Position numbers and translations under genes: made by a program. The notes under the pieces are model-generated. The model worked only from the letters and a program-made list of their open reading frames with translations. It was not told the origin of the DNA and made no database searches. A stretch of 64,000 nt of DNA from Escherichia phage UPEC01: sequence record MW233709; one strand, 5' to 3'. How positions within the stretch are numbered: the stretch's first letter is position 1; each line of letters opens with the position of its first letter. Below, piece after piece: positions 9,703-22,332 of the stretch.

Positions 9703-9706
9703 TTCA

Positions 9707-9736
9707 AAAGGTCTGCCTTCGGGTGGACCTTTTTTC
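9707..9736 (+). terminator. rho-independent terminator
   Basis: GC stem with TTCG loop then TTTTT. Confidence 0.6.
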
Positions 9737-9744
9737 ATTTAGGG

Positions 9745-9802
9745 GTTTACATCCTCATCAAAAGGGTGTACTATTATCCCATCAACTACTGAGGAGAATA
9801 CA
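9745..9802 (+). promoter_or_regulatory. early promoter cassette with CAACTACTGA leader
   Basis: GTTTACA 9745-9751, GGGTGTACTATTAT, leader ATCCCATCAACTACTGAGGAG. Confidence 0.5.
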
Positions 9803-10006
9803 ATGAGAATTAAAAATATCAAGATTGATGCAGTTAATACTGGTGATGAGGTTGTTATCTATCTTAATGATTATGCAATCTTTATGGACAGTGCCACTGA
9901 TGAAGAAGTGGTTGAACTCTTACAGAAAGCTCCATTTGAACTGTGTGAAGAAGATGCTACTCATCTTTCATCAGCAATTTTCTCATTATCATATGTGGTG
10001 GAATAA
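9803..10006 (+). CDS. hypothetical protein
   Basis: ATG directly after cassette leader. Confidence 0.5.
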   Translation: MRIKNIKIDAVNTGDEVVIYLNDYAIFMDSATDEEVVELLQKAPFELCEEDATHLSSAIFSLSYVVE

Positions 10007-10242
10007 TGAAACTTACAAATACCATGGTTTCATTGGAATATGAAACCAATAATCATATTCTTGAAATTAAGATATTTGATGACAGAAGTATATTTGCTGA
10101 TTACAGGGGATACAGAATCCGCCTGGAAAAGGAACAGCTTAAAGATGTTGAGCTTTTTAAAGAAACATTAAAAAGTTGTGGGTGTAAACTGAAAAATACT
10201 CAAGTCCAAGAATTAATTTCTACCATCAACAAATACTGGTGA
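10006..10242 (+). CDS. hypothetical protein
   Basis: ATGA-coupled ORF. Confidence 0.5.
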   Translation: MKLTNTMVSLEYETNNHILEIKIFDDRSIFADYRGYRIRLEKEQLKDVELFKETLKSCGCKLKNTQVQELISTINKYW

Positions 10243-10246
10243 TATT

Positions 10247-10429
10247 ATGTTAACTACTGAACAAATTGAAAAAATTATTAAACTCGCCTGGCATATTGAA
10301 AATGCATCTAATGACCTGGCAGTGGAATTATGTGAAGGCTATTCATATTCTGGAATAGAACAGTGTAAGCGTGATTTGAATAGTTCTAAAGCTAATTTGG
10401 TTGAATATCTGAATGGGTTGAAAGCATAA
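10247..10429 (+). CDS. hypothetical protein
   Basis: Intact ORF. Confidence 0.45.
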   Translation: MLTTEQIEKIIKLAWHIENASNDLAVELCEGYSYSGIEQCKRDLNSSKANLVEYLNGLKA

Positions 10430-10686
10430 TGGCTGTTGGATTTGCAAAAGATGGCGCTGAACAGTTAGAGATGGAAGCGGTTGTACAAGCCGCTATCACC
10501 CATGCGAGAGCACAGGTTGCAGTTGAAAGGGAGTCTGCTGAATTCTGTTTTGACTGCGACGAAAAAATTCCTGAAGCGCGGAGACAAGCGATTAAGGGTG
10601 TGATATATTGTGTTGGTTGTCAATCAATGCATGATGAAATTTTTAAACGTGAGCCACGTAACTGTTGGCATAGGAGCATGAGATGA
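10429..10686 (+). CDS. TraR/DksA-type C4 zinc-finger protein (candidate)
   Basis: CFDCDEKIPEARRQAIKGVIYCVGC motif. Confidence 0.55.
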   Translation: MAVGFAKDGAEQLEMEAVVQAAITHARAQVAVERESAEFCFDCDEKIPEARRQAIKGVIYCVGCQSMHDEIFKREPRNCWHRSMR

Positions 10687-10777
10687 TTTACTATCTTGAA
10701 CCTTGGGCTTGGTTAATAATGGCTGTAGGGCCTGTTTTAATTGGTTTATTCTTTTCATGGTTAGCGAGGAAACTGTA

Positions 10778-10993
10778 ATGTTATACGACCCAAGTGGTAA
10801 TTCTGAAAATGGTGTGATTGTTCTGGAGCCTGAGCATCCGACTGGTGAGGTGTACCGTACCGTTGAAGTGTGTGAATGTAATTTCGTTGAAGGAAATACC
10901 GGTGGGATTTCCATTGAGCAAGATGATGATGTTATTTACCTGGATGCAAGCCAAGTAGAAGCTCTTTATAGTATTTTAAAACATAACCGTTAA
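10778..10993 (+). CDS. hypothetical protein
   Basis: GAGGA SD before ATG 10778. Confidence 0.5.
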   Translation: MLYDPSGNSENGVIVLEPEHPTGEVYRTVEVCECNFVEGNTGGISIEQDDDVIYLDASQVEALYSILKHNR

Positions 10994-11005
10994 GAGGAAA
11001 TTAAA

Positions 11006-11560
11006 ATGATTATTGAAAAATCTGGGTTGTTTGGTGACCTGACTGCCGATGTAATTGATAATGCAATCGTGCTTAAACAAGAAGATGATACAGTCGTTTT
11101 AACCATTCAAGATATTCAGAACCTGTACAAGTTGTCTGTTATTGATGCAGAGCAGTATATTCGAACTCATAATCGTGTCTTTAAAATTAACGATGAAGTT
11201 GTGGCTTGGTTGTATCGAGGTGAAAATGGCTTTAATCTGGAAACCGAATGGGCTTGTTTATCCATTAAAAACCGTTCAGAATTTTTAGAGAAAATTTTTA
11301 AACTGTTCCAAGAAGAGTGTGTACCTGAGCTCGAATGGAAAATCCCTGGTTGTGATGCTATTATGCATTCAAGCGAAACCTTTGAAGGTGATGAAGAAGG
11401 TGATTATAATACTGAATTCAGTGTCCACCAACATCAAGGTCGCGATATGTTATCTATCATCCAGACCCACGATGGTGAAGCTGAAGTAGTATTCACTAAA
11501 GACGAATTAAAAGTTCTGGTAAAATACCTGAACACTGTTATCCCAACTATGAACGCATAA
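11006..11560 (+). CDS. hypothetical protein
   Basis: Intact 184-aa ORF. Confidence 0.55.
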   Translation: MIIEKSGLFGDLTADVIDNAIVLKQEDDTVVLTIQDIQNLYKLSVIDAEQYIRTHNRVFKINDEVVAWLYRGENGFNLETEWACLSIKNRSEFLEKIFKLFQEECVPELEWKIPGCDAIMHSSETFEGDEEGDYNTEFSVHQHQGRDMLSIIQTHDGEAEVVFTKDELKVLVKYLNTVIPTMNA

Positions 11561-11569
11561 GGAATTACA

Positions 11570-12022
11570 ATGATTATTAATGAAAACGCCTGGCACGTTA
11601 AATTACACGACCGTTTTTATGGCCATTATTCTCGCCCACACTCTTTGTGTGCTTACTTCTGGAAAATTGTATGGGTCTGCTTTATTTGTTCTGTGCTTGC
11701 AGGTAGTACAATCTTCGCCTTAACTGTTGCAGGTGCTGGTGTATTGGAGCAGTTCTTTGTATTAAGTACTCCTGTTGGTTTAGGGTTAGGGTTTATTTTA
11801 GGATTAGCTACAATGGCTCTTATTTTGGCGGTAGCATTTGGTTTAATATATGGTCTAATGAATTTATGGGCCTGGTATGATTTACGTAAAGAAGAAAAAG
11901 AATGGGAACGAATTAAAGCCAAACGCGAAGGAAAGGAAATTAAAGAAAACGTTTTCATTCAATATATCAAAGCTCGTAAATCTAAGATGTGTCCGGTAAT
12001 CCATTTTGAGGCGAAGAAATGA
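11570..12022 (+). CDS. hypothetical multi-pass membrane protein
   Basis: Hydrophobic helices (VWVCFICSVLAGSTIFALTVAGAGVL; LGLGFILGLATMALILAVAFGLIYGL); stop overlaps next start. Confidence 0.55.
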   Translation: MIINENAWHVKLHDRFYGHYSRPHSLCAYFWKIVWVCFICSVLAGSTIFALTVAGAGVLEQFFVLSTPVGLGLGFILGLATMALILAVAFGLIYGLMNLWAWYDLRKEEKEWERIKAKREGKEIKENVFIQYIKARKSKMCPVIHFEAKK

Positions 12023-13029
12023 GAACAGTTATGAAAGGCTACTTCGGTAGCCATCTTTATGGAACAAGTACTCCTGAATCTGATGTCGATTTTAAGGAAA
12101 TCTTTGTTCCACACCCACGTGATATTCTGTTAGGTACGGCTATGAACCATACCAACTTGAACACGAATAATACGGCATCCAAAAACACTAAAGACGATGT
12201 TGACCACGAGCTTTATAGTCTGAAATATTTCTTTAAACTGGCGGCTGAAGGCGAAACTGTTGCTCTGGACATGATTCACACTCCGGCTAACCTGGTAGTC
12301 AAATCCGATTTACCAGATGTATGGAAATTTATCCAAGACAACCGTTCACGGTTCTATACGACCAACATGAAAGCATATTTGGGGTACGTCCGTAAGCAAG
12401 CTTCAAAATATGGTGTTAAAGGTTCTAGACTGGCTGCTTTACGTGGTGTACTGGCAATTGTTAACCAGATTCCTGAACAGTGGGTTGACTACCAAGAAGA
12501 TGGTTCGACTAAACAACGTCGCACTAAAGTTGAAGATATTAAGCATCGTCTTCCAGAGAACGAATTCTGCGAATGGGTATTCCATAACCATGAGAAAACT
12601 GGCCCTCAAACGTTTTATACTGTTCTCGGTCGCAAATACCAAACTACTTTGTCATTAATCGAGCTTAAGCAATCTCTGAATAAACTTGATGCCGAATATG
12701 GTGAACGCGCTCGTAAGGCAGAAGCCAATGAAGGTATTGACTGGAAAGCTCTGAGCCATGCTTATCGTGCTGGATACCAGTTGAAGGAAATCTATCAAAC
12801 TGGTGACCTGGTTTATCCGCTCAAAAACGCTTCTATTATTAAAGCAATCAAAGCTGGCGATATGCCTTTCAAAGTAGTCCAAGGCCTGTTGGAAAATACT
12901 GTCGATGAAGTCGAAGTCCTGGCTATCCAGGCCCATAAGAACGGTATGCCTGAGAAGGTAGACATGAAGTTCTGGGACAAGTTCGTTGAAGAGGTATACC
13001 TTGACAACCACAATTCCTATTATCGTTAA
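12019..13029 (+). CDS. Pol-beta superfamily nucleotidyltransferase (family unresolved)
   Basis: GS..YG..(11)..SDVDF motif near N-terminus; 336 aa; translationally coupled to upstream membrane protein. Confidence 0.6.
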   Translation: MRTVMKGYFGSHLYGTSTPESDVDFKEIFVPHPRDILLGTAMNHTNLNTNNTASKNTKDDVDHELYSLKYFFKLAAEGETVALDMIHTPANLVVKSDLPDVWKFIQDNRSRFYTTNMKAYLGYVRKQASKYGVKGSRLAALRGVLAIVNQIPEQWVDYQEDGSTKQRRTKVEDIKHRLPENEFCEWVFHNHEKTGPQTFYTVLGRKYQTTLSLIELKQSLNKLDAEYGERARKAEANEGIDWKALSHAYRAGYQLKEIYQTGDLVYPLKNASIIKAIKAGDMPFKVVQGLLENTVDEVEVLAIQAHKNGMPEKVDMKFWDKFVEEVYLDNHNSYYR

Positions 13030-13034
13030 ATTCT

Positions 13035-13060
13035 AAGGACCCTTCGGGGTCCTTTTTTAT
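13035..13060 (+). terminator. rho-independent terminator
   Basis: AAGGACCC-TTCG-GGGTCCTT then T-run. Confidence 0.65.
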
Positions 13061-13071
13061 TTTAAAAAGTA

Positions 13072-13142
13072 GTGTACAACCAGATGGTCATGAGGCATAA
13101 TGATTCCATACTGAGTTAACAAATAAACAAACGGAGAATAAA
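13072..13142 (+). promoter_or_regulatory. early promoter cassette (CCATACTGAGTTA leader variant)
   Basis: GTGTACAA 13072-13079, CATAATG 13096-13102, leader TTCCATACTGAGTTA. Confidence 0.5.
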
Positions 13143-13349
13143 ATGTTAGAATTAATCAAAGCTGCTGGTGAAAAAGGTCTGATGGTTAACACTCGTGACC
13201 CAGAACAACGTCAAGCATTTGGTGAGTTAAAAGCCAAAGGTCTGGTTAAAGCATCCCTTGGTATTGGTAATGCTTTGCGTGTGACTTTGACCCCTGCAGG
13301 TAAAGCAATGTTCTTCCCTAAACCATTACCAAAACGTCGTCGCAAGTGA
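13143..13349 (+). CDS. hypothetical basic protein
   Basis: ATG after GGAGAATAAA leader. Confidence 0.5.
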   Translation: MLELIKAAGEKGLMVNTRDPEQRQAFGELKAKGLVKASLGIGNALRVTLTPAGKAMFFPKPLPKRRRK

Positions 13350-20044: not shown

Positions 20045-20518
20045 ATGTTGTTGACTGGCAAATTATACAAAGAAGAAAAACAAAAACTTTATGATGCACA
20101 AGCTGGTAAGTGTCCAATTTGCCACCGTGATTTGGACTCCGATGTTCAGGCCAACCATCTTGACCATGACCACGAATTGAACGGGCCAAAAGCTGGTAAG
20201 GTTCGCGGGTTACTATGCAATCTGTGCAATGGAACAGAAGGACAAATGAAGCATAAGTTCAGCCGTTCGGGTCTAAAAGGTCGCAATGTTGACTACCTGG
20301 AATGGTTAGAGAGTTTGCTTGTCTATCTGAAATCTGATTATACCGAAAACAATATTCACCCTAATTTTGTGGCAGACAAAGCCAAAGAGTTCGGTCGTCT
20401 GGGGAAAGAAGAAATGATTCGGGAAATGCTTTTGAACGGTATGACTTATAATGAATCTGACACAAAAACACAATTAATGGCTTCATTTAAGAAGCAGCTT
20501 AGAAAGAGTTTAAAATGA
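20045..20518 (+). CDS. 49: endonuclease VII (Holliday-junction resolvase)
   Basis: Near-identical to recalled T4 gp49 (MLLTGKLYKEEKQK..CPICHR...). Confidence 0.93.
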   Translation: MLLTGKLYKEEKQKLYDAQAGKCPICHRDLDSDVQANHLDHDHELNGPKAGKVRGLLCNLCNGTEGQMKHKFSRSGLKGRNVDYLEWLESLLVYLKSDYTENNIHPNFVADKAKEFGRLGKEEMIREMLLNGMTYNESDTKTQLMASFKKQLRKSLK

Positions 20519-22332
20519 CAATTGAAAACGAAATTGAAGGATTGATTCATAAAACTAATAAAGACCTTTTAAACGAGAATGCTAATAAAGATTCTCGTGT
20601 TTTTCCAACTCAACGGGACCTTATGGCTGGTATTGTATCTAAACACATTGCCAAAAATATGGTCGCGTCTTTTATTATGAAAGCACATGAAAGCGGAATT
20701 ATTCATTTCCATGATATTGATTATTCCCCTGCTCTTCCATTTACTAATTGCTGTTTAGTAGATTTAAAAGGAATGCTTGAGAACGGGTTTAAGCTCGGTA
20801 ATGCACAGATTGAAACTCCTAAATCAATCAGTGTTGCTACTGCAATTATGGCACAAATTACTGCGCAGGTTGCTTCCCATCAATATGGCGGAACGACTTT
20901 TGCGAATGTAGATAAAGTACTTTCTCCTTATGTTAAACGTACCTATGCGAAACATATTGAGGACGCGGAAAAATGGCAAATCACTGATGCGTTGAATTAT
21001 GCTCAATCTAAAACAGAAAAAGACGTATATGATGCATTCCAAGCTTATGAATATGAAGTAAATACTCTCTTTAGTTCAAATGGTCAGACTCCTTTTGTGA
21101 CAATTACATTTGGTACTGGAACTGACTGGACTGAACGAATGATTCAGAAAGCAATTCTGAAAAATCGTATTAAAGGTCTTGGTCGTGATGGGATAACTCC
21201 TATTTTCCCTAAACTTGTTATGTTTGTTGAAGAAGGTGTTAATCTTTATAAAGACGACCCGAACTATGATATTAAGCAGCTTGCTTTAGAGTGTGCAAGC
21301 AAAAGAATGTATCCTGATATCATTTCAGCTAAGAATAACAAAGCTATCACTGGTTCATTTATTCCTGTTTCTCCAATGGGTTGCCGTAGTTTCTTGGGCG
21401 TATGGAAAGATTCGACTGGTAATGAAATTCTTGATGGACGTAATAATCTTGGTGTTGTAACACTGAATCTTCCTCGCATTGCATTAGATTCTTATATTGG
21501 AACACAGTTCAATGAACAGAAATTTACTGAATTGTTCAATGAGCGAATGGATTTATGTTTTGAAGCTTTGATGTGTAGAATTAGTTCCTTAAAAGGAGTT
21601 AAAGCGACTGTTGCTCCTATTCTTTATCAAGAAGGTGCATTCGGGGTTCGTCTTAAACCTGATGACGATATAATTGAGTTATTTAAAAACGGTAGAAGTT
21701 CAGTATCCCTGGGATACATCGGTATTCACGAATTGAATATTCTTGTCGGTCGTGATATTGGGCAAGAAATTTTGACTAAAATGAATGCTCGTCTTAAGCA
21801 GTGGACTGAAAGAACCGGATTTGCTTTTAGCTTGTATTCTACACCTGCTGAAAACCTGTGTTATCGCTTCTGTAAACTCGATACCGAAAAATATGGAAGT
21901 GTAAAAGATGTTACTGATAAAGGCTGGTACACTAACAGTTTCCATGTTTCAGTAGAAGAAAATATTACTCCGTTTGAAAAGATTTCTCGTGAAGCCCCAT
22001 ATCATTTCATTGCGACAGGCGGTCACATTTCTTATGTTGAACTTCCTGATATGAAAAATAACTTAAAAGGTCTTGAGGCTGTATGGGATTATGCTGCACA
22101 GCATTTAGATTATTTTGGTGTTAATATGCCAGTGGATAAATGTTTTACATGTGGAAGTACCCATGAAATGACTCCTACTGAAAACGGATTTGTTTGTTCT
22201 ATTTGTGGAGAAACTGACCCTAAAAAGATGAACACAATAAGAAGAACATGCGGCTATTTGGGAAATCCGAACGAACGCGGATTTAATCTCGGCAAAAATA
22301 AAGAAATCATGCATAGGGTTAAACACCAATGA
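20515..22332 (+). CDS. nrdD: anaerobic ribonucleoside-triphosphate reductase
   Basis: 605 aa; glycyl-radical motif RRTCGYLG near C-terminus; uninterrupted (no intron). Confidence 0.95.
   Translation: MTIENEIEGLIHKTNKDLLNENANKDSRVFPTQRDLMAGIVSKHIAKNMVASFIMKAHESGIIHFHDIDYSPALPFTNCCLVDLKGMLENGFKLGNAQIETPKSISVATAIMAQITAQVASHQYGGTTFANVDKVLSPYVKRTYAKHIEDAEKWQITDALNYAQSKTEKDVYDAFQAYEYEVNTLFSSNGQTPFVTITFGTGTDWTERMIQKAILKNRIKGLGRDGITPIFPKLVMFVEEGVNLYKDDPNYDIKQLALECASKRMYPDIISAKNNKAITGSFIPVSPMGCRSFLGVWKDSTGNEILDGRNNLGVVTLNLPRIALDSYIGTQFNEQKFTELFNERMDLCFEALMCRISSLKGVKATVAPILYQEGAFGVRLKPDDDIIELFKNGRSSVSLGYIGIHELNILVGRDIGQEILTKMNARLKQWTERTGFAFSLYSTPAENLCYRFCKLDTEKYGSVKDVTDKGWYTNSFHVSVEENITPFEKISREAPYHFIATGGHISYVELPDMKNNLKGLEAVWDYAAQHLDYFGVNMPVDKCFTCGSTHEMTPTENGFVCSICGETDPKKMNTIRRTCGYLGNPNERGFNLGKNKEIMHRVKHQ

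Follow-up and report, generated by a model that had tools for sequence, protein, structure and literature searches.

Introduction

The Pfam family PF10127 was named RlaP (RNA-ligase-associated Pol-beta) for its linkage to RNA ligases; its members are the most prevalent nucleotidyltransferases (NTases) of this kind in jumbo phages, and for the phage clade the prediction is that it puts missing nucleotides back on cut tRNAs before these are ligated (PMC7824862). According to a 2025 preprint, two RlaPs from Pseudomonas extend the 3'-OH of RNA by one or two nucleoside monophosphates, with a preference for Mn2+ and no activity on DNA or protein; a tRNA short of one nucleotide is better aminoacylated once they have repaired it (PMC12776372). 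The same work describes the crystal structure of PfRlaP, which consists of an NTase domain and a C-terminal helical domain forming the substrate cleft, and it places NrdC.11 of phage T4 in cluster 5 of a PF10127 sequence similarity network (PMC12776372). In 2006, the COG of this family, COG3541, was matched by five of six nrdC.11 orthologs (PMC1524935). Here we analyze a pair of overlapping genes in a 64,000-nucleotide (nt) stretch of Escherichia phage UPEC01 (sequence record MW233709), hereafter the window. The second gene of the pair, the open reading frame (ORF) 12019-13029, encodes an NTase of 336 amino acids (aa), and the first, 11570-12022, encodes a membrane protein of 150 aa that we call MEM. 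On sequence grounds, ORF 12019-13029 is an ortholog of T4 nrdC.11 and belongs to the RlaP family as a divergent member of the long form.

A membrane protein and an NTase are also found together in Hailong, which consists of a transmembrane effector and an NTase; HalB, the 217-aa NTase, synthesizes protein-primed oligo-dA, and this gates the HalA channel (PMC13434031). Having compared the window with both kinds of system, we consider that the best explanation overall, with a probability of about 60%, is an nrdC.11-type RlaP that adds nucleotides to RNA 3' ends before ligation, the overlap with the MEM gene being ordinary packing.

Results

Identity of the enzyme

By searching protein family databases, we found that both ORFs, which lie where the first-pass annotation of the window had placed them, are genuine and not chance readings: in PHROGs, the NTase matched phrog_388, 'nucleotidyltransferase' (E 2e-130), and MEM matched phrog_944 (E 1.5e-53). 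Against Pfam, the NTase reached 44.9 bits with RlaP/PF10127 (E 1.5e-11, cut-off 23), its residues 8-134 aligning with positions 25-142 of the 249 in the profile. The protein is 100% identical to the Escherichia phage UPEC01 protein in the databases (GenBank) and ~82% identical over 336 aa to proteins of the T2/T6 type, and in related records its gene is annotated as nrdC.11. In T4 the gene order is mobD.1 - mobD - nrdC.11 - nrdC.10, and in RB69 and the window it is mobD.1 (y05I-like) - MEM - nrdC.11. Because of the phrog_388 and PF10127 matches, the high full-length identity and the shared genomic slot, we conclude that the NTase and T4 NrdC.11 are orthologs.

The first-pass annotation, made from the letters alone, had recognized a Pol-beta-fold NTase, which the catalytic signature and the Pfam match bear out, and it had rightly admitted that the family could not be decided by eye. 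To leave the protein as an unclassified NTase is no longer tenable, as the profile searches place it firmly in RlaP, with nrdC.11 as its T4 counterpart; this is the very result that the first-pass annotation had named as one that would overturn its reading. The enzyme family is large: it is present in 1546 phage records, and the NTase matched 3100 clusters (50% identity) with E <= 1e-3, of which 806 remained under a limit of 1e-30, almost all of these over their full length. A precomputed PF10127 match is present in all of 120 homologs, among the matches listed.

We also noticed that orthologs of nrdC.11 are widely mislabelled as 'thioredoxin' in GenBank and UniRef, and that others bear the name polynucleotide kinase, thymidine kinase or HNH endonuclease. 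The mislabelling looks like name bleed from the adjacent nrdC gene.

Catalytic residues and fold

In a family alignment of 90 sequences (35-94% identity), G10, S11, G15, S21, D22, D24, Y131, K243, H247, R250, P267, K278 and G280 are invariant, and N56, D60, D62, D84, Q127, R230 and D241 are conserved in at least 90% of the sequences (D84 in 96%). The codons of the catalytic signature, G10-S11 and S21-D22-V23-D24, span 12046-12090 on the + strand, to which all positions given here refer. The first-pass annotation had seen this signature but had misjudged its spacing as x11: the real form is GS-x9-SDVD, and ten residues separate S11 from D22. The canonical Pol-beta NTase motif is hG[GS]x9-13Dh[DE]h, and its x9-13 range covers the spacing from S11 to D22.

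By using hhalign, the family could be aligned with canonical 255-aa bacterial RlaPs over the N-terminal 81 columns only (probability 47%, E 2e-4). In this alignment GS is paired with GS (SDVD standing opposite SDYD) and D22/D24 with D39/D41, and D62 and D84 fall on the invariant residues D72 and E94, respectively. The Pol-beta catalytic set is retained in the NTase, with D62 as the likely third carboxylate. Both the alignment and its position at the start of strand 61-67 point to D62 (codon 12202-12204) as the likeliest candidate for this role, and D84 (codon 12268-12270) is a further conserved acidic residue.

The AlphaFold model of the NTase (predicted local distance difference test score, pLDDT, 91.2; predicted template modelling score, pTM, 0.76) contains an N-terminal alpha/beta domain (~1-135), a beta-rich insert (~150-210) and a C-terminal helical domain (~213-335). 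Sequence searches of the PDB with the NTase, with the family profile and with the canonical RlaP profile found no NTase, in a copy of the PDB from which the PfRlaP structure is absent. By fold, the best structural match of the model was HalB.

Comparison with other nucleotidyltransferase families

We then considered the other families that share this fold. First, CD-NTases and CBASS were rejected, as there was no SMODS or CD-NTase match in Pfam and no PADLOC match; at E <= 0.1, PADLOC matched neither the NTase nor MEM. Second, MNT/HEPN pairs (type VII toxin-antitoxin systems) and AbiEii were rejected, the NCBIfam MntA model reaching 13.3 bits against a cut-off of 60 and the neighbours being a y05I-like gene and a membrane protein gene. 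Third, CCA-adding enzymes and poly(A) polymerases were rejected, with NTP_transf_2 at 13.9 bits against a cut-off of 21 and no PolyA_pol match. The NTase helices 213-335 resemble HEPN/KNTase_C-like bundles by fold; the locus differs from ANT(4')/KNTase enzymes and MNT-HEPN modules in that it has no sequence-model match to them, lacks a separate HEPN toxin gene and lies outside any antibiotic-resistance context.

The first-pass annotation had likened the two genes to a nucleotide-signalling or toxin module. The most plausible form of this idea would be a Hailong-like one, in which an oligonucleotide made by the NTase gates or neutralizes MEM, or in which the phage enzyme mimics HalB and keeps a host HalA closed. 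That HalB is the best structural match fits such a reading, as do the compatible order of the genes (membrane gene, then NTase) and the pairing of a membrane effector with an NTase in Hailong itself (PMC13434031). However, we detected no similarity of sequence to HalB or to any NTase of the PDB, PADLOC recognizes neither protein, and MEM is a small hairpin of 150 aa without a large cytoplasmic ligand-binding domain. Moreover, the obligate pairing of the Hailong type is not seen here: the two genes occur independently, MEM without an adjacent NTase and the NTase without MEM, and the neighbourhoods of the enzyme family are those of RNA repair and not defence islands. Membership in Hailong is not supported, and we regard a Hailong-like role as very improbable. 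More generally, with the CD-NTase, SMODS and PADLOC searches negative, MntA below its cut-off and the pair separable, the reading as a two-gene signalling or toxin module is not supported.

The overlap between the two genes

As read from the sequence, and as the first-pass annotation had reported, the NTase start overlaps the MEM stop as ATGA at 12019-12022, with the MEM stop codon TGA at 12020-12022. Within the 3' end of the MEM gene, a Shine-Dalgarno-like GAGG can be read at 12006-12009, ending 9 nt before the ATG at 12019. The same overlap between the two genes is found in RB69. By counting the same-strand junctions of the window, we found ATGA at 19/125 and an overlap of any kind at 46/125. 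Because ATGA is this frequent, the overlap carries little information. We therefore rejected translational coupling as evidence of a partnership: ATGA is common and also joins unrelated genes, for example those of endonuclease VII and nrdD. Among the loci first examined, the MEM gene directly abuts the RlaP gene with ATGA in only 11. The overlap is ordinary gene packing of the T4 type and no evidence of a dedicated two-component system; it may nevertheless couple the translation of MEM and the NTase.

The enzyme also occurs without MEM. First, when the complete T4 genome was searched in six frames with a hidden Markov model of the MEM family, no homolog came up (best E 0.13, compared with 8.6e-60 for the window). 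Second, MEM is missing from RlaP loci that are more distant (at least 40) and from all 80 loci of a bacterial/archaeal set carrying long-form homologs of the enzyme (L179-L258). Third, the two genes can be separated where both are present. In phages of the Klebsiella/Enterobacter type, an unrelated ORF of 136-185 aa (phrog_10164, phrog_12852 or phrog_7981) stands between MEM and RlaP and overlaps the RlaP start by ATGA, and in T4-like phages of Aeromonas and Stenotrophomonas MEM and RlaP lie ~75 kb apart. Since T4 and the bacterial relatives lack MEM, the enzyme does not need it.

The homing endonuclease gene mobD occupies the junction upstream of nrdC.11 in the close relative VR26 (L009/L101) and in T4 (PMC2988022) and is absent from the window phage. 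Because VR26 and T4 carry mobD at this point, the MEM/nrdC.11 junction is a homing-endonuclease insertion site.

RNA-repair neighbourhoods and proposed mechanism

By examining the neighbours of the RlaP gene in phages, we found RNA-repair genes at several loci. An Rnl1-like ligase is encoded immediately 5' of it in L083 and L086 and nearby in L079 and L081, and an Rnl2-like ligase close to it in L062. In L090-L092, the gene of an AAA_33 kinase overlaps the RlaP start, and metallophosphoesterase, Rnl1 and Rnl2 genes lie within 6 kb. The RlaP gene also stands inside arrays of tRNA and transfer-messenger RNA (tmRNA) genes in Phaeobacter phage MD18 (L005), L064 and L084, with tmRNA in 2/3 of them. 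We rejected adjacency to tRNA genes as a general rule and treat it as anecdotal, tRNA arrays being found beside RlaP in 3/55 loci.

In the bacterial/archaeal set, the nearest neighbours include a canonical RlaP paralog (14/139), Pnkp ligase-domain proteins, AAA_33 proteins, metallophosphoesterases, RtcA and Ro60. Long-form NTases of Desulfobacterales, Nitrospirota, Alphaproteobacteria and others most often have a canonical 255-aa RlaP paralog directly 3', and some adjoin Pnkp-type kinase-phosphatase-ligase proteins of 850-890 aa. Because the long form is often directly followed by the canonical paralog, this tandem arrangement suggests that the two RlaP forms are not redundant in bacteria.

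Drawing on the biochemistry of bacterial RlaPs and on these gene neighbourhoods, we propose the following as the most likely mechanism. D22, D24 and D62, together with a divalent metal that is probably Mn2+, would catalyze the untemplated addition of one nucleotide or two onto the 3'-OH of a broken RNA. The principal targets would be 5' halves of tRNA from which host anticodon nucleases of the RloC type have removed a nucleotide, and the polynucleotide kinase/phosphatase and RNA ligases of the phage would then reseal a tRNA of correct length.

Several observations weigh against this proposal. In the literature that we searched, we found no biochemical or genetic experiment on T4 NrdC.11 or on any phage member of the family, and T4 survives the loss of the nrdC.11-mobD.3 region in the laboratory (PMC9825161). 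No RNA ligase or kinase gene was found in the transcription unit to which the NTase gene belongs (9746-13054). In addition, the phage clade is divergent, and its insert and C-terminal domain are clade-specific, so that substrate and product could differ from those of the Pseudomonas enzymes.

The membrane protein family

MEM belongs to phrog_944, the RB69ORF104c family, which occurs in 1106 phage records. The first-pass annotation had called it a multi-pass membrane protein, and hydropathy and AlphaFold together point to two passes: residues ~27-102 are hydrophobic and the N- and C-terminal tails basic, and the model has long helices at 26-61 and 67-119, at low confidence (pLDDT 69). MEM is predicted to be a two-pass hairpin of the inner membrane with both ends in the cytoplasm. 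Among 19 divergent members, H9, C27, Y29, K139 and C141 are invariant. Conservation is found in the tails (SWH(Y) and LCxYFW at the N-terminal side, KAxKxKxCPxIEF at the C-terminal side), while the transmembrane core is hypervariable. MEM also evolves much faster than the enzyme: in Tequatrovirus-like loci its identity is 34% where that of the enzyme is 82%, and in RB69 the two values are 42% and 70%. Against the Pfam holins, MEM remained below threshold (Phage_holin_3_6, 17.3 bits, cut-off 28.4). A match to oleosin was likewise below threshold and is probably compositional given the hydrophobic make-up of the protein. Two paralogous copies of MEM are present in some T4-like genomes, either flanking RlaP (L056/L176) or in tandem upstream of it (L151).

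These properties would fit a MEM that has nothing to do with the enzyme, that is an early-gene moron with a superinfection-exclusion, host-takeover or holin-like function, next to nrdC.11 by chance in the hyperplastic nrdC-tk region. PHROGs places the family in its category moron/host takeover. In its size, its pair of helices with both termini inside and the charge of its C-terminus, MEM is similar to small membrane effectors of phages, and the weak sub-threshold holin match points the same way. Its fast evolution is typical of conflict genes, it is separable from the NTase, and at many loci its neighbours are unrelated genes. On the other hand, conservation in the cytoplasmic tails and not in the membrane core is at odds with this reading, and chance hardly explains why MEM repeatedly stands immediately beside several RNA-repair enzymes in divergent phages.

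This recurrence takes different forms. In Pseudomonas phages of the Pakpunavirus type, the order is HD - x - metallophosphoesterase - x - helix-turn-helix protein - MEM - Rnl1-type ligase (PF09511, after a gap of 11 nt) - AAA_33 kinase. In Stenotrophomonas phage IME13 and in T4-like phages of Aeromonas, the gene 3' of MEM, at a distance of 82-90 nt, encodes a PF09414 ligase that has a PHA02142 OB domain. In metagenomic T4-like contigs, Rnl2-x-Rnl1-x-MEM is followed by phosphoesterase, kinase and RlaP genes, all within 6 kb. An AAA_33 kinase gene lies 9 nt 3' of MEM in L162, and in phiR1-37 an NAD-dependent DNA ligase gene lies ~400 bp 3' of it, with one gene between. In Pseudomonas phage SW_PA2862_11_24 (L087, 1944-5764) and at other loci of the Pakpunavirus type (L129, L131, L142 and L152), we observed a putative compact RNA-repair cassette, with genes for an HD phosphohydrolase, a metallophosphoesterase, a helix-turn-helix protein, MEM, an Rnl1-type ligase and an AAA_33 kinase, followed by PRPP synthetase and NAMPT genes.

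By clustering 124 MEM members at 45% identity, we obtained 53 clusters, 23 of which have an RNA-repair enzyme gene within 1.5 kb of MEM; ~25 clusters, mostly singletons from jumbo and metagenomic phages, have no recognizable RNA-repair gene within 5 kb. When the MEM-RlaP clusters of the T-even type were collapsed to one event, 35 units remained, and MEM is immediately adjacent to an RNA-repair gene in 6 of them. With background rates of 1.8-5%, the binomial tail of this count is 4e-5 to 7e-3, and the nearest RNA-repair gene, where there is any within 5 kb, lies at a median of 274 bp (P ~8e-5 vs uniform), although these statistics are post hoc and use background rates that are only estimated and no matched control family.

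MEM might accordingly be an optional membrane-anchored accessory of mobile phage RNA-repair cassettes, that is of Rnl1/Rnl2, Pnk-like kinase, metallophosphoesterase and RlaP genes. As an example, zinc might be bound by its His/Cys tails, which could bring RlaP, an RNA ligase, a kinase or damaged tRNA to the inner membrane or regulate them there, with co-expression ensured by the overlap. The position of MEM within 300 bp of different RNA-repair enzymes in separate lineages, including RlaP in the T-even types, argues for such a role, together with the adjacency tails, the median distance and the invariant H9, C27 and C141 in the conserved tails. Several observations argue against it: T4 has RlaP, Rnl1, Rnl2 and Pnk but no MEM, none of the 80 bacterial loci has MEM, and ~25 of 51 MEM clusters lack a recognizable repair gene within 5 kb. 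Furthermore, unrelated genes or a homing endonuclease separate MEM from RlaP in many phages, MEM evolves far faster than the enzyme, and the adjacency statistics have the limits just given. We hold an accessory role to be a tentative and rather unlikely explanation; an unrelated moron is slightly more probable, itself short of even odds. Between an optional accessory and an unrelated neighbour, the odds are thus roughly equal. What stands of the partnership between NTase and membrane protein suggested by the first-pass annotation is that both may serve a shared RNA-repair pathway, as MEM recurs beside RNA ligases and kinases; a dedicated module of the two is not borne out.

Organization of the transcription unit

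The source phage is a T4-like myovirus whose early genes lie on the + strand of the window. The region 11000-13200 is 94-96% identical to that of Escherichia phages TH22 and VR25 and was matched in 623 phage records. The NTase gene is the last gene of an early/middle transcription unit between two terminators: a strong intrinsic terminator at 9706-9733 is the upstream limit of the unit that ends with MEM and the NTase, and an intrinsic terminator at 13035-13054, AAGGACCC-TTCG-GGGTCCTT followed by a T-run, closes it. Directly upstream of the MEM gene, in the same unit, lies the mobD.1 (y05I-like) gene of 184 aa (11006-11560), with Pfam matches to T4_y05I_N (E 5e-31) and T4_y05I_C (E 1.7e-20). 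In T-even-type loci, the MEM gene is immediately preceded by a y05I-like ORF or by no more than the C-terminal domain of one.

A perfect hairpin with a tetraloop, GGCUAC-UUCG-GUAGCC, lies at 12037-12052, 19 nt into the NTase ORF, and spans the codons G7-H12, including those of the catalytic GS. It is kept in close relatives, in RB69 (with a UUUG loop) and in one Klebsiella-type locus, and it is absent from T4 and others. Being lineage-restricted and absent in T4, it was rejected as a conserved regulatory element; a local effect on translation is possible.

The same unit contains an 85-aa ORF (10429-10686) with a CxxC...CxxC pattern resembling zinc fingers of the DksA/TraR type, and Proteus phage PM2 and an Acinetobacter phage each have a similar small zinc-finger ORF in the corresponding region. 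Further downstream, the nrdD-like ORF 20515-22332 (605 aa) is uninterrupted, whereas T4 nrdD contains an intron. In the 64,000 nt of the window, a tRNA scan and an Rfam scan both returned nothing at threshold.

Discussion

As found, the gene matters little, as it is a routine ortholog in a family that has already been named, modelled in Pfam and partly characterized. Its interest lies elsewhere. First, the long-form phage RlaP clade is large and structurally distinct from the characterized bacterial enzymes, and T4 offers a tractable system for asking whether phages rebuild the nucleotides removed by anticodon nucleases of the RloC type. Second, the enzyme being of a known kind, a possible link of the MEM family to phage RNA-repair cassettes is the only new element here. 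That one small membrane family recurs next to four different enzymes of RNA repair is a clue, so far unreported, that RNA repair in infected cells may be in part membrane-associated. If the link were true, part of phage tRNA repair would be localized at the membrane, which no current model includes, and in the source phage MEM would be co-translated with RlaP.

The pathway that the NTase is proposed to feed is the heal-and-seal repair of tRNA by which T4, with PseT and Rnl1, counters PrrC. Homologous kinase, phosphoesterase and ligase genes are clustered with RlaP and MEM in some phages, whereas in T4-type genomes these genes are dispersed and none lies in the transcription unit of the window. 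A step that adds nucleotides is not known to be part of tRNA repair in T4.

Within that setting, the closest relative with a name is T4 NrdC.11 itself (NP_049709, 336 aa). It has the same length as the NTase, occupies the same slot between mobD.1 and the nrdC.x genes, and is annotated as a nucleotidyltransferase and member of PF10127 (PMC12776372). The two loci differ in what precedes the gene: T4 has the HNH homing endonuclease gene mobD directly upstream (PMC2988022) and no MEM homolog in its genome, whereas in the window phage the MEM gene overlaps the nrdC.11 start codon.

The characterized enzymes, PfRlaP and PaRlaP of Pseudomonas (PF10127 cluster 1a), are more distant. Proteins of the phage clade are ~80 aa longer, carry the beta-rich insert at ~150-210 and have a C-terminal half that cannot be aligned to canonical RlaP. 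Nevertheless, both kinds belong to the same Pfam family and share GS, DxD, the third Asp and the following acidic residue. The layout predicted for the phage enzyme, an N-terminal NTase domain and a C-terminal helical domain, resembles that of PfRlaP (PMC12776372), and both kinds are associated with RNA-repair genes, the phage clade in relatives of the NTase of the window.

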